Positions 3,173 to 14,736 of a stretch of 64,000 nt of DNA are shown here, piece after piece. The notes beneath the pieces are model-generated. The model made no database searches. It saw only the letters and a program-made list of their open reading frames with translations, and was not told the origin of the DNA. Both the position numbers and the translations under genes were made by a program. Origin of the DNA: Desulfobacteraceae bacterium UBA5616 (GTDB taxonomy: Bacteria > Desulfobacterota > Desulfobacteria > Desulfobacterales > UBA5616). Location: positions 507-64,506 of the forward strand of contig DIKO01000105.1 of assembly GCA_002423615.1 (NCBI GenBank), written 5' to 3'. How positions within the stretch are numbered: the first letter of the stretch is position 1; the number at the start of each line of letters is the position of its first letter.

Positions 3173-4543
3173 CTATCCCACCATCAGGTTCTCTTCGGCA
3201 TATTCAATCCCATTGCCGACGCCTGCTCCCACGATGATGTAAGAGAAGGTGAGTACCCCCACCCGGCCGATAATCATTACAAAAATGATGATATATTTAC
3301 TGAATGGATCAAGCATGGGCGTTATCCCCATGGATAACCCCACCGTCCCGAATGCGGAAACCACTTCAAACAGAAAGGCCAGGAATGAACGCTTCGAAAT
3401 CTCCGGATGGACGCCGGACGCCGTATCCCCGACCAGCAGCAGGAAGACAGTGGTCCCGATAATGCCGATGGAGATCAGGATCAGAGACATGCTGCGGGTC
3501 ACGGTTTCATTGGGGATGCTTTTCCTGAAAATATTGACACGGCGTTTTCTTTTGATGCGGCTTAAGGTGAAGGCCGTGAGCAGGGCCAGTGTGGTGGTCT
3601 TCACGCCTCCGCCGCAGGAACCTGGAGATGCGCCGAAAAACATGAAGAAAATCATCATGGCAAGTGTGGCGTCCTTCAGGGATCCGATGTCCACCGTATT
3701 AAAGCCCGCAGTCCGGCAGGTGATGGACTGAAAAACCGGAGCCAGCAAACGGCTTCCGGGGGGGAGGGACCCCGTCAGCATTTGTTTTTCGAGAAAACCG
3801 AACATAACCATGCCGGCAAGAATCAGAAATAGGGTGGTCAGCAACACCGTTTTGGTTTGTATGGACAGCCGCGTCCTTTTTTTCCTCCGCATGACGAACC
3901 AGGATTGCAGGTCATAAAGCACCGGAAACCCGATACCGCCGACCACAATCAGGCCTCCTATGGTCACATTCAACAGTAGGCTTCCGCTGTAGTCCATCAG
4001 GCTGTTCGGGAAAAGGGAAAACCCGGCATTACAGAAAGCTGAAACCGAGTGAAAGACCCCTCGATAAACGGCGGTGGGTATCGGCAGTTCCCTGCCCCAG
4101 TAAATGGAAAGCACAACCGCGCCAAATGCCTCGACGCCGAATGTGAAATAGATAATGCTCTTCACCAGGCCGAAAATATCTTCCCGGGGGGTATGCGCAA
4201 ACAAGTCCTGCATGGCCATTCTGTGACGGAAGGCAACGCTGCGTCCGAACCACCGAAACAGGGCCACTGATATGGTCATGACCCCCAGACCCCCGATCTG
4301 AATGAGGCACAGGATTACCCCCTGGCCGAACAGGCTGAAATAGCTTCCGGTATCCAGGACCGCAAGACCCGTGACGCAAACGGCCGATGTTGCGGTAAAC
4401 AGCGCATCCGCCCAGAAAATGTGCCCGCCCATGGTGGAGAAGGGCAATTTCAGCAGGAATGTGCCCGCGAAGATCAGGGAAAGAAAGCTTCCCAGAACAA
4501 GAGCCGCCGGGTGAAGTTTAAGGACTCGACTGCGAAAGGTCAT
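3173..4543 (-). CDS. trkH: TrkH/KtrB family K+ transporter membrane subunit
   Basis: 456-aa polytopic protein with repeated pore-loop-like motifs (VTGLAV, NAGFS, TAGFNT, TVGLSMG). Confidence 0.85.
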   Translation of the reverse strand: MTFRSRVLKLHPAALVLGSFLSLIFAGTFLLKLPFSTMGGHIFWADALFTATSAVCVTGLAVLDTGSYFSLFGQGVILCLIQIGGLGVMTISVALFRWFGRSVAFRHRMAMQDLFAHTPREDIFGLVKSIIYFTFGVEAFGAVVLSIYWGRELPIPTAVYRGVFHSVSAFCNAGFSLFPNSLMDYSGSLLLNVTIGGLIVVGGIGFPVLYDLQSWFVMRRKKRTRLSIQTKTVLLTTLFLILAGMVMFGFLEKQMLTGSLPPGSRLLAPVFQSITCRTAGFNTVDIGSLKDATLAMMIFFMFFGASPGSCGGGVKTTTLALLTAFTLSRIKRKRRVNIFRKSIPNETVTRSMSLILISIGIIGTTVFLLLVGDTASGVHPEISKRSFLAFLFEVVSAFGTVGLSMGITPMLDPFSKYIIIFVMIIGRVGVLTFSYIIVGAGVGNGIEYAEENLMVG

Positions 4544-5115
4544 TCCCTGTCCCTCGGGTTCAGAAAATATTCACAGTACGCATGGCCGGCCGTCTCGCAG
4601 ACGTGATGAAGCCTGCCGCCTCCCAGTACCATACGGTTCCGGTATGCGCCACAGGAGATCAGTTCATTTCCGTCATCCACCGGGCGATAGGTGAGGAACG
4701 GGCAGAGTTGGCCTAAAATCCGGTCTATTCTCATGGATCCATCTGCATGGGTCAAACGGTTAAAAATAAAGCCGGGGTCCACAGATCCGTTTTCTCCTTG
4801 AATATGGACAAAATCCAACCCCGCATCCGCCATCCGTCGGATCATATCCCGGTGGGGACGGTCCATAGAGGCCGTCACCCGCACTTCTTCGGACACGGGA
4901 TGGCTTTTTAAACAATGACAAAGCTCAACAATGTCGTCACGCAGCGAGCGCCTGTTCCGCGTTGAAAAGCAGATGATGATCAATTCAAAGCTGGCCGTCG
5001 TAGCTGCAAAAAGGCAGCAAAGAGGCGAGCGGACCCATTGACAGTCCACCCTGTTTTCGATACGGATACGTTCATGTAACCGGCATACCAGAATTTTAGG
5101 CTGCATCGAAGACAA
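4540..5115 (-). CDS. hypothetical Cys-rich protein
   Basis: 191-aa ORF whose stop overlaps the trkH start by 4 nt (operon-like). It has many Cys and His but no family recognised. Confidence 0.4.
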   Translation of the reverse strand: MSSMQPKILVCRLHERIRIENRVDCQWVRSPLCCLFAATTASFELIIICFSTRNRRSLRDDIVELCHCLKSHPVSEEVRVTASMDRPHRDMIRRMADAGLDFVHIQGENGSVDPGFIFNRLTHADGSMRIDRILGQLCPFLTYRPVDDGNELISCGAYRNRMVLGGGRLHHVCETAGHAYCEYFLNPRDRE

Positions 5116-5300
5116 AACCTTGTAGTTGGGATTTCCGCCATTTACCCGGCCTGTTCGTTCAGCCCATACAGCAATTTTTATGCCTGTTATTTTATCTAAT
5201 TGATTTTATATAAAAAAGCAGTTGCGCCCCAGTATTATCGCTCTGGGTAACGGCAACGAAGTTGAATCCTGCAAGGAAAAGCTCCTGCATCTTGCAAGGA

Positions 5301-6626
5301 TTAATCCAGATTATATTTTTTTCGTTTTCGCCACAGAGTGGCCGGATCGATGCCCAGTACCCTGGCGGCCTCTTCCAGCGACGGTGTATGGGATATGACC
5401 GTCCTAATATGCTCTTTTTCAATTTCACCCAGACTTTTCAGGGAAGTGGAGGAAATGGATGAAGAATTGAAATTTGCAATGCCGGAAGACAGGTCAGCCG
5501 TCCTGATTTCGGTTTCATGAGCCATGATGACGGCCCGTTCAATGGCGTTGATCAATTCCCGGACATTCCCAGGCCAGGGATAGTTCTGCATCCTCTGCAA
5601 CGCTTCGGGGATTATGCCGCGGACAGACTTGTCGTTCAAACGGGCCGATTGCTTCAGGTAATGCTCGGCCAGCAGTTGAATATCCTCAGGCCGATCCCTC
5701 AGCGGGGGAATGAAGAGTTCCAGTACATTCAGGCGAAAGTAAAGATCCTCCCTGAAGTCCCCCTGTCGGACCATTTCCTCCAAATCCCTGTTGGTGGCGG
5801 CGATAATGCGCACATCCACGGAATGGGGCCTGGGATCCCCGAGACGCTCGTATTCCCGCTCTTGTATGAAACGGAGCAATTTCCCTTGAACGGTGATGGG
5901 AATTTCCGAAACTTCATCGAGGAAAACGGTCCCCCCCTCGGCCAGTTTCAGTTTTCCCTCCTTGTCCCGCAAGGCTCCGGTAAATGCACCCTTGACATGG
6001 CCGAAAAGATCGCTTTCCAGGAGATTTTCGTGAAGCGCCGTGCAATCCACGGTCACCAGAGGACCTTTCGACCTGGGACTCCAGTCATGAATCAACCTTG
6101 CCAAAAGCCCTTTTCCAGTGCCGCTTTCGCCGCTGATCAGAACAATCGCTTCAGAATCCGCAACCTGACGAGCCGTCTGCAGAATTTTCCGCATTCTTCG
6201 GTTCCGGGTCAGGATGCCCCCCTCGGAAAAAATTCCTTTCAGAACGGCGATCTCTTTTTCCATGTGATGAATTCGATTGCGGCGCTCCATAACGAGATCC
6301 AGCTGACCGGGGACAAATGGTTTGGGCAGGTAATCAAAAGCCCCCATTTTAACGGCACTGACAGCGGTTTCAATGGAGGCGTGGGCCGTGATCATCACCA
6401 CCTGGGTCTTGATGCCGCATTGTACAATTTCCTTAAGCACTTCCAGTCCATTGCCATCCGGAAGCTTCAAATCCAGCAACACAAGATCGGGGGTTTCCCT
6501 GTTAAAACATTCGAGTCCTTTTCCGCCGGAAATCGCCTTTACAACCTCAAACCCTTTTTCTTCAAGATACATTTCCAGGGTGGCCAGGATATTCTCGTCA
6601 TCGTCAATGATCAGCGCTTTTTCCAT
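5301..6626 (-). CDS. sigma-54-dependent response regulator (NtrC family)
   Basis: 441 aa. Receiver domain ([14 protein letters not shown]); AAA+ domain with Walker [16 protein letters not shown] loop and FLDEV; C-terminal HTH ([18 protein letters not shown]). Confidence 0.9.
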
Positions 6627-8163
6627 TCATATCCTCCGCTTTGGATGGTATCCAGAAGGTAAAGGTTGCACCTTCCCCCATCGTGCTCCTGACATGGATA
6701 TCGCCGCCATGCTGTTCGATGATGTCCTTGACGATGGCCAAACCCAGACCGATGGTGCCGCTTTTTCCGCGTTCGGAAAATTGGGTGAACCGGTCAAAAA
6801 TATGCGGCAGAAAGCGGGGGTTGATGCCGCTGCCGGTATCGATGCAGTGAAAATAAAACCGCGATTGTTGTTTGTGGACCCTTAGGATGATACGCCCTCC
6901 CCGATCGGTGTAACGCAGGGCATTTCCCACCAGATTGGTGATCACCCAGGGAAAACGGAATGAATCAATGGTGACGGGAGGAAGTTTTTCCTGGACGTGA
7001 ATTTCGATAAAAACTCCTTTGATTTCAGCTTCTTTCATCAGAGGCGCAAGGCTTTCCCGAATCACCACGCCGATATCCAGGGTTTCTTTGGGTCGGGGTT
7101 TGGACATGGTTTCAAGACGGGAAATGTCCACCAGTTCGTTGATCAGCACCGTCAACCGCCTGCAATCGTCATGGGCCATCTTAAGCAGTTTGCCTTTTTT
7201 TTCAGCTTCCAGACCTTCACCCCGCTCATGCAGCATGCCGATGCTCATGGACAGGGAGGTCAGGGGCGTTTTCAACTGGTGTGAAATATCGGCGATAAAT
7301 CTTCCTTTTGCCTCCTCGCTGCGACGAACCTTTTCTTTTTCCTCGGCAAGAATATCATCACGATGACGATCGTATTGTTCAAGGCGGTTGAAAAGGCGTG
7401 AGAAGGACTGGGTCAGAAAACCGATCTCATCCCCGGTGCGGGTCTCCACAATGGGATAAACGCCCGTTCCTTCCCGGGTGTCTGAAAGACTTCGGGCAAG
7501 GGTCATGATCGGCCTGGCGATGCGGTAGGATAAAAAATAACTCAACGTCAGAATAGCACCGATAATGACCCCGAAAAGAATGGTTGAATGACGTTGGGCC
7601 CGGGAGGCAAAATCCCGTGTCTCCAGTTCCGCCCTTTCCATTGCTTTCTCATTAATCAAAACCAGGCTGTCCACGGTTAAAACCATTTTGGCCGTTAATG
7701 TCAGAAAGCCTGCGACACGCTGACCGGACAAGGGGTCATCAAGTGTCGGGCCAAAGGATCTCACCGGAATTTCATACTGACTGTAAAGCTCGTATAAATG
7801 ATTGACCAGATCCTGCTCACCATCCTCGGTGATGTTCTCCCGGCAGACACTCAGATTGGACGATAACTTTTTTAAGGTATCCGCTGAAACGCCGGGGAAC
7901 CTCATCCCCCGGGATACATGATCCAGAAGGTTGTTTTGAATTTCTTCAAGGGATTTTCGAACCTCTTGAGCAGCCTTGATGCTTTTATAATTCTTGGACA
8001 GGATCAGTTCCGCGCTTTCTCCCAGGGAACTCAGATACTGGTTGTTGACAAAGGCCGCGGCCAACAAGGCGATGGTCGGGGCCAGGCATACCAAAAATAT
8101 TTTAAACCGGATGGGATGTCGGATCACAATCCCGTCTTTTGATTTCCGACGAATAATTTTCAT
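6604..8163 (-). CDS. sensor histidine kinase with TM-flanked sensor and HAMP-like linker
   Basis: 519 aa with H-box ADISHQLKTPLTSL and HATPase boxes (VGNALRYT, DTGSGI, GLGLAIV). It overlaps the regulator gene by 23 nt. Confidence 0.85.
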   Translation of the reverse strand: MKIIRRKSKDGIVIRHPIRFKIFLVCLAPTIALLAAAFVNNQYLSSLGESAELILSKNYKSIKAAQEVRKSLEEIQNNLLDHVSRGMRFPGVSADTLKKLSSNLSVCRENITEDGEQDLVNHLYELYSQYEIPVRSFGPTLDDPLSGQRVAGFLTLTAKMVLTVDSLVLINEKAMERAELETRDFASRAQRHSTILFGVIIGAILTLSYFLSYRIARPIMTLARSLSDTREGTGVYPIVETRTGDEIGFLTQSFSRLFNRLEQYDRHRDDILAEEKEKVRRSEEAKGRFIADISHQLKTPLTSLSMSIGMLHERGEGLEAEKKGKLLKMAHDDCRRLTVLINELVDISRLETMSKPRPKETLDIGVVIRESLAPLMKEAEIKGVFIEIHVQEKLPPVTIDSFRFPWVITNLVGNALRYTDRGGRIILRVHKQQSRFYFHCIDTGSGINPRFLPHIFDRFTQFSERGKSGTIGLGLAIVKDIIEQHGGDIHVRSTMGEGATFTFWIPSKAEDMNGKSADH

Positions 8164-8360
8164 ACATCTTCATAATATTCCGTTTTCTCAGAACAAAGCA
8201 ACAGTGAAATCGCCTTGTCACAGCCCGGTTCGGTAGCTGTTCTGCGACTCCATCGCGCAGAAAAATCGCGATTATGCGAACAAATCGGAACCCCCCGGCC
8301 CGGCATAGCGACAACACATTGATAATATAATACTTTAATTTTCGCTGAATATCCATTCAT

Positions 8361-8376
8361 GGGCAGGTTTTATGCA
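8361..8376 (+). promoter_or_regulatory. putative sigma-54 (-24/-12) promoter
   Basis: GGCAGGTTTTATGCA against the consensus GGCACG-N4-TTGCW. The GG-N10-GC spacing is exact. It lies 66 nt upstream of ATG 8442, and a divergent sigma-54 activator gene is adjacent. Confidence 0.55.
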
Positions 8377-8441
8377 CTACATTTTCAAAATGCAAAAGAG
8401 TCGCATAAAAAATTACCCAAATTCGACAGGAGGAGCAATCT

Positions 8442-9761
8442 ATGACGGATCGTGTGGTTAAACTCGGCGGTAAAAAAAATTCAACCTTTATGGACAAGGT
8501 TAAGAAAATTTTGCCGGAAGGCGGAAATTTAAACCTTTGCCTGACCTGCGGGGCCTGCTCTTCGGGCTGCCCGGCCACGGGCCTGGACGGGATGGACCCC
8601 CGGAAATTTTTGCGGATGGCGGCCCTGGGGATGGATGAAGAAATCGCAAAATCCGACTGGCCGTGGATGTGCACCATGTGCCAGCGCTGCATTTACGTCT
8701 GCCCAATGAAAATCGATATTCCCCAGCTCGTCTATAACGCCCGGGGACTCAGGCCTCGGGAGGAACGGCCAAGGGGTATCCTGGGCTCCTGCGACATGGC
8801 CCTGAGGAATAAAAGTACCAGCGCCATGGGAACCTCACCGGAGGATTTCGCCTTTGTGGTCGGAGATGTTCTTGAGGAGTACCGGGAGGCCCAGCCTGAA
8901 TTCGCCGACATGGAGGCCCCCATCGACAAACAGGGTGCGGAATTTTTTTTAAACCAGAACTCAAGAGAACCGGTCACCGAACCGGACGAAATGGTCCCCC
9001 TGTGGAAAATTCTTCATCTGGCAGGAGTCGACTGGACTTACGGCAGCAGCGGCTGGGGCGGCGAGAACTATTGTATGTTCCTCGCGGACAACGATTCCTG
9101 GGAGCAGATCACCCGCACCACCGTAGATCAAGCCAACCAGCTGGGGGTTAAAACGTTCCTGAACACCGAGTGAGGCCACGTGACATTCTCAGTCCTGGCA
9201 GGACTGAAAAAATTCAACCTCGAACACCATTTTGAAGTCAAAAACATCTACGAGTACTACGCCAAATGGATCCGGGAAGGCAAGCTCAAGGTCAACTCCG
9301 ACTGGAACAAGGATCTGAAAATCAAATTTACCGTACAAGACCCCTGTCAGATCGTTCGAAAAAGTTATGGAGACCCCATTGCCGAGGATCTCCGGTTTGT
9401 GGTGAAATCCGTGGTGGGGGAGGAAAATTTCATCGACATGACCCCCAACCGGTCCAATAATTACTGCTGCGGCGGCGGCGGGGGTTTTTTGCAATCGGGT
9501 TTCAAGGAACAGCGGCTGGAATACGGGCGATTAAAGGACCAGCAGATAAAGGCCACGGGCGCCGACTACTGCATTGCCGGCTGCCACAACTGCCATGCCC
9601 AGATCCATGAGCTCAGTGAACATTACGGCAGCGGATACCCGGTGGTGCATCTGTGGACCTTGATCTGCCTCTCCCTGGGGGTTCTGGGACCCAATGAGCG
9701 GGAGTACCTGGGGGACGATCTCAAGGAAGTCAATGTCTTCCACCCGGAGACGGCCATGTAA
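8442..9761 (+). CDS. HdrD/GlpC-like Fe-S oxidoreductase (2x CxxCxxCxxxCP plus CCG domains), probable selenoprotein with in-frame UGA at 9171-9173
   Basis: Track ORFs 8442..9173 and 9180..9761 are in the same frame, separated only by TGA-GGC-CAC. The N-part has CLTCGACSSGCP and CTMCQRCIYVCP. The C-part has a canonical CCG domain (C-x39-CCG-x36-CHNC). The UGA sits in C-x31-E-U-G, where the first CCG motif is expected. A hairpin follows the UGA. Confidence 0.7.
9189..9207 (+). promoter_or_regulatory. putative bacterial SECIS hairpin
   Basis: CAGUCCU-GGC-AGGACUG is a perfect 7-bp stem (plus a flanking U-A pair) starting 16 nt after UGA 9171-9173, with a G-rich apical loop. Confidence 0.5.
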
Positions 9762-9777
9762 TCAACAGAAATCGGTC

Positions 9778-10143
9778 ATGACGGAAAATTTAACGATAAC
9801 AGAACTCGAAAAACGCTGGGATCATGTTTTGTCGGCCACCCAAAGGGCTGTAAACAAAAATCCCGGCGTTTACCGCCTTCTCAAATCCCTTGCCGGGGAT
9901 ATTGTTGAAAATCCCCTGGATATCCATGAGTACATGCCCACGGTGGGAAGGCTTTCCGATCTGCTTGAAACCCTGGACCCCGGGGGGAACGGCAGCATAT
10001 TCAGTATTTTCAACGAACGCATCAAACCCGCTTCCATCTGGCAGGTGGCCCTGTTGCGGGTGGAGTGCGGGGATCTTCTGGCCCATCTGAAGGAGTTTGA
10101 TAAATGGCGGTGTTCGAGCGCCGGATTGAGACTCGTGAAGTAA
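9778..10143 (+). CDS. hypothetical protein
   Basis: ATG 9778 lies just after the stop of the Fe-S gene. The track ORF from 9694 would overlap that gene. No motif recognised. Confidence 0.4.
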   Translation: MTENLTITELEKRWDHVLSATQRAVNKNPGVYRLLKSLAGDIVENPLDIHEYMPTVGRLSDLLETLDPGGNGSIFSIFNERIKPASIWQVALLRVECGDLLAHLKEFDKWRCSSAGLRLVK

Positions 10144-10281: not shown

Positions 10282-10342
10282 TTGACAGCCGGGTGCGGGC
10301 CCGGATATACTGACACGTAAATTTTATTTATCGTGTCAGTAT
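10282..10342 (+). promoter_or_regulatory. sigma-70-like promoter overlapped by an 11-bp perfect inverted repeat (candidate operator)
   Basis: TTGACA (10282-10287), 18 nt, TATACT (10306-10311). ATACTGACACG (10307-10317) and CGTGTCAGTAT (10332-10342) are exact reverse complements separated by 14 AT-rich nt. Confidence 0.5.
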
Positions 10343-10373
10343 GACATCACTCCCATCGACCAAGGAGACCGTG

Positions 10374-11333
10374 ATGCAGTTTCAAACCGCCGGAGTCGAA
10401 GTCGCTGTCTGGGTCCCTCCCCTGGTGGCGTTCGTTATTTCCTTTTTCACATCCATGGGGGGCGTGTCGGGTGCTTTTCTGATTTTACCCTTTCAGATGT
10501 CATTTCTCGGCTACACCCACCCTTCGGTGAGCGCCACCAACCAGCTCTACAATATCGTCGCCATCCCGAGCGGCGTGTACCGTTATTGGAAAGAAGGCAG
10601 AATGGTGTGGCCCCTCACCTGGATTGTCATAACCGGCACCCTGCCCGGGGTTTTCATCGGCGCTTTTCTCAGGGTCGCTTATCTGCCGGACCCAAAAAAT
10701 TTCAAACTGTTCGCAGCGGCCGTACTCCTTTATATCGGCATCCGGATGGCCGGGGACCTGGTCCGGAAAAAATCCGGCGCCAACGACAAGGTCGCCGGCG
10801 ACAAACGTTTCCAGGAGATGGTGCGGCGGCGACGGGAAAAAATGGACTCCCGGGACCTCGCTAATAACGATTTACCCGCCGTGAAGGTCACTCATTTTAA
10901 TTTAAAGCGTCTGGGGTACACTTTTTACGATGAGCAGTTCGATGTTCCCTTCTGGGGGATCTTTTCCTTGAGTTTTATCGTGGGAATCGTGGGCGGCATC
11001 TACGGCATCGGCGGCGGTGCGATTATCGCCCCCTTCTTTGTGACATTCTTCAGGCTGCCGGTCTATACAGTGGCCGGAGCGGCCCTCATGGGGACCTTTG
11101 TGACATCCATTGCCGGCGTGGCTTTCTTCCAGGCCTTGGCGCCGTTTTATCCGAACATGTCCGTAGCTCCGGACTGGCTGCTGGGCGCTTTGTTCGGTTT
11201 GGGCGGCATGGCCGGAATGTATCTCGGTGCGCGTTGCCAGAAATTCGTACCGGCCAGGGCCATCAAATGGATGCTGGCCGGCATTCTCCTTTTTACGGCA
11301 TTCAAATACATCGCTGAATTTTTGGGGTATTGA
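10374..11333 (+). CDS. TSUP (TauE/SafE) family anion exporter
   Basis: Polytopic protein with duplicated Gly-rich TSUP motifs (MGGVSGAFLILPF, GIGGGAIIAPF). ATG 10374 has an AAGGAG RBS 6 nt upstream. The track start at 10341 is also possible. Confidence 0.75.
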   Translation: MQFQTAGVEVAVWVPPLVAFVISFFTSMGGVSGAFLILPFQMSFLGYTHPSVSATNQLYNIVAIPSGVYRYWKEGRMVWPLTWIVITGTLPGVFIGAFLRVAYLPDPKNFKLFAAAVLLYIGIRMAGDLVRKKSGANDKVAGDKRFQEMVRRRREKMDSRDLANNDLPAVKVTHFNLKRLGYTFYDEQFDVPFWGIFSLSFIVGIVGGIYGIGGGAIIAPFFVTFFRLPVYTVAGAALMGTFVTSIAGVAFFQALAPFYPNMSVAPDWLLGALFGLGGMAGMYLGARCQKFVPARAIKWMLAGILLFTAFKYIAEFLGY

Positions 11334-13828: not shown

Positions 13829-14682
13829 CTAATAAATGACCCCGGTTTCCTTAAGCCGGGCGATGTCCTCCCAGGTGCAGCCGTTTTCCAGGAGAATCTC
13901 CTCGGTATGCTGGCTGAATTCAGGGGCCGGCATCCGGACTTTTTCCGGATAACCGGATAAATGGATGGGGTTGGCCACCCCTTCAATGGTGCCGTGTTCG
14001 GGGTGCTCATAGGAAATAAAAAACCCATTGGCCCGGGCCTGGGGATCGTTGACCACTTCCAGATGGGTCTGGACGGGAGAGTATGGGATGTCCGCCTGAT
14101 TCAACAGATCCTTCCACTCCTCCAGGGTTTTTTCTTTGAAAGCGGCTTTCAGCAGATCGGTCAGGGCGAGCTTGTTTTCCATTATTTTTTCCGCGGTTTC
14201 GAACCTCGGATCGGATATCAGATCCTTACGGCCGATACCGGTAAAAAACCGGGCTGCATACCGTTCCAGATTAAGGACCGAAAACAGGAGCCACCGGTTG
14301 TCCTTTGCCTGATACTGCCCATATAGCGGGTGGGGCACGTCTTTTTCCGGCGATATTGAGACGCAATCCTCGCCGGTGACGATGGAACCGGAAAGGTCGA
14401 AGGCCGGGGTGTTCTTCTCGGGTCCCTCTTTTCCAAAGCCGTTTAAATTCCCGCAAACGAGCCTTTCGTTTATGTTACGGAGCTCTTCATATTCCAGATG
14501 TAATTGATGTTCGACTGAATGCCGGTTTTCATGCCGGCCAGAACCCAGCGGAAAAGATCCCCGGTGATGGTATTCTCCACATGAATTACTTCCGCGCCGA
14601 AATCCGCCAGAATTCTCGCCGTCATGGGGACGGCGGCGACCTGGGACACATCCACGATTTTGATGCCATTCAGAGGCAGCAT
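13829..14682 (-). pseudogene. family III (CaiB/BaiF) CoA-transferase, internally deleted and frameshifted
   Basis: The N-terminal 70 aa (LNGIKIVDVSQVAAVPMTARILADFGAEVIHVE) end at TAA 14470. The remainder (EYEELRNINERLV..NGFGKEGP...DPRF...EEWKDLL...) continues in another frame. The total of about 285 codons is well short of the roughly 400 usual for this family. Confidence 0.6.
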
Positions 14683-14736
14683 GAGATTCCTCCAATATTT
14701 GACGATTTGACCGTCAGAAAAATCCGTGAGTTTTGA

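Follow-up and report, generated by a model that had tools for sequence, protein, structure and literature searches.

The selenoprotein family 'Fe-S oxidoreductase (GlpC)' is listed for Deltaproteobacteria, where its genes are often clustered with hdrA and frhD (PMC1794560, PMC1976440); a catalogue of 2026 credits the family to Kryukov and Gladyshev (2004) and gives its selenocysteine (Sec, U) motif as UGH (PMC13188914). A soluble Sec-containing HdrD4 is encoded by Desulfobacterium autotrophicum HRM2, whose genome also carries selA, selB, selC and selD (PMC2702500). The proteins DsrK, TmcB and HmcF possess a single CCG motif and, within a T/GECGH sequence that is what remains of the other one, a Cys that is strictly conserved and was proposed by Barbosa et al. 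to be essential for disulfide or trisulfide reduction (PMC10861901). The present study concerns a gene with features of all of these, located in a stretch of 64,000 nucleotides (hereafter, the window) of contig DIKO01000105.1 (positions 507 to 64,506, assembly GCA_002423615.1) of the Desulfobacteraceae bacterium UBA5616. Judged from the sequence and its comparison with homologues, positions 8442–9761 very probably represent one gene of a soluble HdrD-type Fe-S oxidoreductase, a fusion of HdrC- and HdrB-like parts, in which the UGA at 9171–9173 would be decoded as Sec (U244). The gene is a further, mis-split member of the already catalogued family, its membership being assigned by the UGH motif and the domain architecture. 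A preliminary description of this DNA had proposed a probable Sec at the in-frame UGA and had counted Fe-S oxidoreductases of the GlpC/HdrD type among the selenoprotein families of Deltaproteobacteria; this classification agrees with the literature (PMC1794560, PMC13188914, PMC2702500), and the proposal is supported by the Cys column, the conservation of the TGA and the covariation in the downstream hairpin, as set out below.

Two open reading frames (ORFs), 8442–9173 (243 amino acids (aa), ending with the TGA at 9171–9173) and 9180–9761 (193 aa), lie in a common frame and, as the same description had stated, are parted solely by TGA-GGC-CAC. Gene callers split the gene into these 243-aa and 193-aa ORFs on every contig seen, four contigs carrying the exact gene. 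TGA is an ordinary stop codon in the window, where it terminates 26 of the 66 long ORFs, and an alternative genetic code was rejected for this reason. Only at 8442–9761 does a long ORF of the window that is ended by TGA run on in frame into a stretch that neither belongs to another gene nor overlaps one; a second selenoprotein candidate was not found among the in-frame continuations of the window's long TGA-ended ORFs, the other extensions being either adjacent genes that share the frame or overlaps that do not.

Comparison with homologues places the UGA at a Cys position. At the UGA column, Cys is found in each of the 120 top-ranking full-length homologues of the protein collection (about 435 aa, 65–79% identity), as part of an invariant E-C-G-H; this is the alignment that the preliminary description had suggested making. 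The 80 closest loci, taken from genomes of different GTDB species, all of them Desulfobacterales and relatives, with 81–91% identity, contain TGA at the identical codon without exception, in the context L-N-T-E-*-G-H-V-T-F-S-V-(L/R)-A-G-L-K. Both halves of the protein are conserved in these loci, the median amino acid identity to the window protein being 82% for the half upstream of the TGA and 91% for the downstream half. Further Sec paralogues with TGA are found in loci L078, L085 and L087 (related loci are designated here by L and a number). In a neighbour-joining tree, 84 Sec forms make up one clade, and the only Cys forms inside it are those of L085 and L087.

The UGA is followed, starting at the 16th nucleotide (nt) after it, by a hairpin with the stem UCAGUCCU/AGGACUGA and the loop GGC, which may alternatively be read as seven base pairs (bp) with a UGGCA loop; the perfect 7-bp hairpin reported previously at this distance is thus real and slightly longer (8 bp). 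Across 82 aligned Sec-form sequences, 98.3% of the stem cells are paired. The closing pair (38–42) is U-A in 42 sequences, G-C in 35, U-G in three and G-U in one, and is never unpaired; the pair 33–47 is A-U in 67 sequences, G-U in 10, G-C in two and U-A in two. When the pair switches from U-A to G-C, a Leu/Arg codon changes from CUG to CGG and, coupled with it, an Ala codon changes synonymously from GCA to GCC. None of 500 shuffles matched the observed pairing or covariation score, and sliding the 3' arm by 1–3 columns brought the pairing down to 20–45%. The mean entropy at third codon positions is 0.37 bits within the hairpin vs. 1.12 outside, and the constraint on synonymous positions is confined to the hairpin.

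The hairpin tracks the TGA and not the peptide, being absent from five Cys paralogues. Folding of the 27-nt window after the Cys or Sec codon yielded −9.6 to −12.2 kcal/mol for the Sec forms (−11.2 kcal/mol for the gene studied here) vs. −2.3 to −6.6 kcal/mol for the five Cys paralogues; the Cys paralogue of L087 reads SVRAGIKKF where the Sec copy reads SVRAGLERF, yet its GTG/GCT/GGG codons destroy the stem. A second type of Sec paralogue (…WLNTE-U-GHELFAVLAGLK…), encountered in L078 (at 1831 and 3566) and in L085 (at 8551), differs in the residues right after G-H; the hairpin sequence is unchanged despite these differences. The published model of the bacterial selenocysteine insertion sequence (bSECIS) comprises an apical loop of 3–9 nt, an upper stem of 4–16 bp, a G in the first two loop positions, 16–37 nt from the UGA to the loop and a minimum free energy of −7.5 kcal/mol or lower (PMC13188914). 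The hairpin agrees with this model on all four counts, having a 3-nt GGC loop with G in the first position, 8 bp, 23 nt and −11.2 kcal/mol; the search for such an element, advised in the preliminary description, has yielded a hairpin that fits the published model (PMC13188914) and is conserved with compensatory changes.

The 439-residue product of read-through has the composition of an HdrC-HdrB fusion. Pfam searches indicated Fer4_8 and relatives, including Fer4_17 (4Fe-4S dicluster), at residues 30–91 and a CCG domain at residues 297–388 (E = 6e-11), with Fer4_8, Fer4_17 and CCG scoring above the gathering thresholds. The best NCBIfam matches remain below the equivalog cut-offs (HmcF 175 vs. 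750, TmcB 173 vs. 735, DsrK 123 vs. 400). A sequence search of the PDB matched HdrC chains to residues 11–105 (E 3e-12 to 4e-10), and in PDB profile searches residues about 289–414 aligned with HdrB (5odc_B) at its C-terminal CCG motif, both the CCG and the CxxC being matched. The fold was compared with Foldseek using the AlphaFold model of a Cys paralogue with 79% identity, P0001 (predicted template modelling (pTM) score 0.82); against whole HdrB chains the model gave target-length template modelling (TM) scores of 0.62–0.66 over about 290–315 aligned columns, with E-values down to 2e-6, and against HdrC a TM-score of about 0.5. The HdrC-like and HdrB-like matches therefore point to the HdrD architecture, in which HdrC and HdrB are fused. 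The second CCG domain, previously called canonical (C-x39-CCG-x36-CxxC), and the first one, previously read as C-x31-E-[UGA]-G, are found in the read-through product in exactly these forms, the latter as C211-x31-E243-U244-G245. The two complete CX31-39CCGX35-36CXXC motifs of canonical HdrD/HdrB are not present, as the first motif lacks the CxxC; the first motif being degenerate, a second noncubane cluster is not expected.

The gene shares with the Fe-S oxidoreductase (GlpC) family a single Sec in UGH, the nature of an Fe-S/CCG protein, abundant Cys homologues and the occurrence in Desulfobacterales. Similarly to the glpC-hdrA-frhD clusters, many orthologues of the gene adjoin hdrA and mvhD/frhD; the copy in the window, unlike these, is outside an hdrA-mvhD operon and has a sigma-54 two-component system and a 121-aa ORF as its neighbours. 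HdrD4, compared by its description, is likewise a soluble HdrD with HdrC- and HdrB-homologous domains, no transmembrane part and Sec, and it comes from the same bacterial family; its genome also has Cys paralogues, as does Desulfonema magnum among the loci examined here (L035 with Sec, L086 with Cys). DsrK, TmcB and HmcF resemble the window protein in having two [4Fe-4S] motifs, only one CCG motif that is complete and the T/GECGH position, but have Cys where it has Sec, and the window protein scores far under the equivalog cut-offs of these proteins; genes of DsrM/HdrE-type, Tmc or Hmc membrane or cytochrome partners were not found within 10 kb on either side. As for methanogen HdrB/HdrC (PDB 5odc, 8rvu, 7bkb), the N-terminal part folds as HdrC and the remainder as a whole HdrB, whereas the window protein is one fused chain for which one noncubane cluster is expected and not two, and the identity is 15–17%.

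At the T/GECGH position the window protein reads T-E-U-G-H. By analogy with the DsrK-type proteins, an active-site role of U244 is more likely than that of a cluster ligand, the active-site reading being preferred because the first CCG motif is degenerate and U244 occupies the position of the T/GECGH Cys (PMC10861901). The preliminary description had left the choice between a cluster-ligand and an active-site Cys position open; on the basis of the degenerate motif and of PMC10861901, its active-site part is favoured and its cluster-ligand part has become less likely. A natural Sec at the proposed DsrK-type catalytic Cys would be evidence for redox chemistry at that residue. The literature search found no paper mentioning both selenocysteine and DsrK, and the link between the Sec position and the DsrK-type catalytic Cys was not encountered there.

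A mechanism can be proposed for both the decoding and the catalysis. If the standard bacterial mechanism applies, the hairpin at 9189–9207, which lies inside the coding sequence, would act as a bacterial SECIS; SelB, bearing Sec-tRNA(Sec) plus GTP, would bind the G-rich apical loop and deliver Sec when the UGA enters the ribosomal A site. In the protein, homology suggests that electrons may pass via the two N-terminal [4Fe-4S] clusters to the single noncubane [4Fe-4S] cluster of the C-terminal CCG motif. Beside that cluster, U244 might serve as a redox-active nucleophile attacking a substrate of disulfide, trisulfide or persulfide type, and the resulting selenenyl-sulfide intermediate would then be reduced by the cluster in one-electron steps. 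A broader and rather doubtful extension is that the Sec-for-Cys replacement at T/GE(C/U)GH marks the redox-active nucleophile, and not a cluster ligand, of all single-CCG enzymes of the HdrD/DsrK/TmcB/HmcF type, and that the 121-aa protein, co-conserved and bearing one invariant Cys, which the putatively sigma-54-controlled locus encodes, is a dedicated protein-thiol substrate, as DsrC is for DsrK.

Other explanations of the interrupted frame fit the data less well. Were the TGA a true stop, two working polypeptides would be made, a 243-aa HdrC-like protein and, by re-initiation at GTG 9180, a CCG protein of 193 aa, in the manner of the methanogen HdrC and HdrB subunits, which are separate chains in the solved complexes; gene callers annotate the gene so in four metagenome contigs, and in the window a GTG does stand 6 nt past the stop. 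However, the frame is interrupted within the first CCG domain of the HdrB-like part, with E243 and G245 of the invariant ECGH on either side, and not at the HdrC/HdrB boundary, and there is no conserved restart, because the codon after G-H is GTG in merely 19 of the 82 Sec-form sequences, the rest having GTC, GTT, GTA, ATC, ATA or GAA. Neither a stop at an all-Cys column nor a covarying hairpin would be expected for a split. The preliminary description had named a two-gene split in homologues as an observation that would speak against Sec; no homologue shows one, as the TGA is present in 80 of 80 loci and both halves are conserved. Two separate products are hence very improbable. About equally improbable is that a near-cognate or suppressor tRNA inserts one of the standard amino acids (Cys, Trp or Gly) at the UGA, with the hairpin stimulating this process without SelB. 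Stem-loops located 3' of stop codons can promote read-through, but TGA works as a normal stop for the 26 long ORFs of the window mentioned above, the hairpin matches the specific bSECIS geometry with its G-rich loop, the family with the UGH motif is a catalogued selenoprotein, and a related Desulfobacteraceae genome encodes selA, selB, selC and selD together with 31 selenoproteins (PMC2702500). The least credible explanation is a pseudogene or a sequencing error, i.e., a nonsense change from TGC or TGT to TGA in a decaying gene; such a change takes one base, and another gene of the window, that of a CoA-transferase (about 13829–14700), looks fragmented. Against this, the identical 243-aa product was called on at least four independent contigs, the 80 related species genomes that keep the TGA show strong amino acid conservation on both sides of it (the downstream median being as high as 91%), and the Sec forms constitute one clade of 84 sequences; a pseudogene or an error is practically excluded, since the TGA is kept across 80 species and on four independent contigs.

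Decoding of the UGA as Sec is thus the preferred reading, and several observations weigh against it or against the role assigned to U244. ARAGORN found no tRNA-Sec in the 64-kb window (only a tRNA-Leu), where selA, selB and selD were not searched for. The single-sequence fold of 9165–9230 is weak (z = −1.29), with 23 of 200 shuffles folding as well or better; because of this z-score, the non-randomness of the hairpin is not shown by the window alone, and it is the comparative data that show it. No SECIS-type Rfam family was detected, either in the whole window at the gathering cut-off or in 9100–9300 by E-value, the matches obtained in these searches being chance miRNA/lncRNA ones with E > 2; as Rfam gave no SECIS match, the hairpin is neither backed nor contradicted by a curated covariance model. 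PDB searches with the single sequence, the full-length profile and the C-terminal profile all aligned HdrC and the C-terminal CCG motif of HdrB, but none of them matched the degenerate first CCG region to a solved HdrB at the level of single residues, and for this reason the equation of U244 with the second Cys of the CCG triplet rests on the spacing C-x31-E-U-G and on PMC10861901. The catalytic Cys itself is a published proposal for DsrK-type proteins and not a demonstrated mechanism (PMC10861901).

The practical point of these results is one of annotation, as the Sec forms are hidden by splitting; the current understanding is otherwise unchanged. Since gene callers cut at the TGA, full-length Sec forms are missing from the predicted-protein databases, where the best full-length match has 79% identity.

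Elsewhere, Sec orthologues are located in operons of the type hdrA-mvhD-[Sec hdrD]-metV-metF or [Sec hdrD]-metF-hdrA-mvhD, in which the hdrA-like gene encodes a protein of about 945 aa. Such operons were recognised in L004, L008, L010, L017, L021, L026, L035 and L051, in the region from about −4 kb to +2.5 kb relative to the TGA, and also in L009, L032, L036, L052 and L079. This recurring hdrA-mvhD-hdrD-metVF arrangement ties the Sec enzyme to methylene-tetrahydrofolate reductase electron transfer and suggests that the selenoprotein is a subunit in a methylene-tetrahydrofolate reductase/Hdr-type complex of Desulfobacterales.

In two loci, Sec and Cys paralogues stand in tandem: L085 contains the Cys copy at 6001–7320 and the Sec copy at 7822–9140, and L087 contains the Sec copy at 3224 to about 4546 and the Cys copy at 5001–6323. 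These pairs suggest either a recent Sec-to-Cys conversion or a backup pair responding to selenium availability; in the latter case the backup would be selenium-dependent.

The features of the locus are collected in Table 1.

Table 1. Features of the predicted selenoprotein gene and of its surroundings; positions are counted from the first letter of the window.
Feature	Position	Strand	Remarks
Divergent two-component pair	5301..8163	-	Sigma-54-dependent response regulator 5301-6626; histidine kinase 6604-8163
Candidate sigma-54 -24/-12 promoter gGGCAGgttttATGCA, GG-N10-GC spacing	8361..8376	+	Consensus match, 9/12 specified positions
Shine-Dalgarno sequence AGGAGG	8428..8433	+	Read from the sequence; 8 nt 5' of ATG 8442
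Predicted selenoprotein coding sequence, complete	8442..9761	+	439 codons and TAA stop, single frame; HdrD-like (HdrC-HdrB fusion) Fe-S oxidoreductase, putative Sec at codon 244
Two CxxCxxCxxxCP motifs, C33/36/39/43 and C77/80/83/87	8538..8702	+	HdrC-like module for two [4Fe-4S] clusters
Degenerate first CCG pattern C211-x31-E243-U244-G245	9072..9176	+	No Cys between 244 and 302, hence no CxxC
In-frame UGA, predicted Sec codon U244, motif L-N-T-E-U-G-H	9171..9173	+	Cys/TGA comparison of homologues
bSECIS-type hairpin	9189..9207	+	8-bp stem 9189-9196/9200-9207, GGC apical loop 9197-9199, 23 nt from UGA to loop
Complete CCG motif C302-x39-CCG(342-344)-x36-C381xxC384	9345..9593	+	Predicted noncubane [4Fe-4S] cluster site
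Conserved 121-aa ORF	9778..10143	+	Single invariant Cys, RVEC-G-DLL; possible partner protein
TauE/SafE-family permease	10341-11333	+	Pfam E = 2e-41; just 3' of the 121-aa ORF

The products of the divergent two-component pair contain the Pfam domains Response_reg, Sigma54_activat and HTH_8 (the regulator) and HisKA and HATPase_c (the kinase). Of the 80 related loci, 37 contain homologues of the sigma-54 regulator, many lying no farther than about 1–3 kb from the Sec gene, and we infer that the pair likely regulates this gene. The candidate sigma-54 box is situated 66–81 nt 5' of the start codon, and many related loci (e.g., L001–L003, L007, L011, L012, L037, L043, L047, L048, L060 and L077) have similar GGCAC-N5-ATGCT boxes 5' of their Sec gene; the gene in the window may be under sigma-54 control.

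The 121-aa ORF, for which no Pfam family was matched, has tblastn matches right after the stop codon of the Sec gene in 17 of the 80 loci, and it is also found 3' of the Cys paralogues in L086 (6818–7189) and L089 (6337–6708). The family has an invariant Cys within LR(V/M)EC-x-DLL, and the protein may be a thiol partner or a substrate of the oxidoreductase. The permease of the TauE/SafE family is not conserved beside the Sec gene in any of the 80 related loci.

Farther downstream, family III CoA-transferase sequences on the minus strand (the fragmented gene mentioned above) were called as pieces of 70 and 169 aa. Family III CoA-transferases are usually about 400 aa long, and the split probably reflects a frameshift, a pseudogene or faulty assembly.

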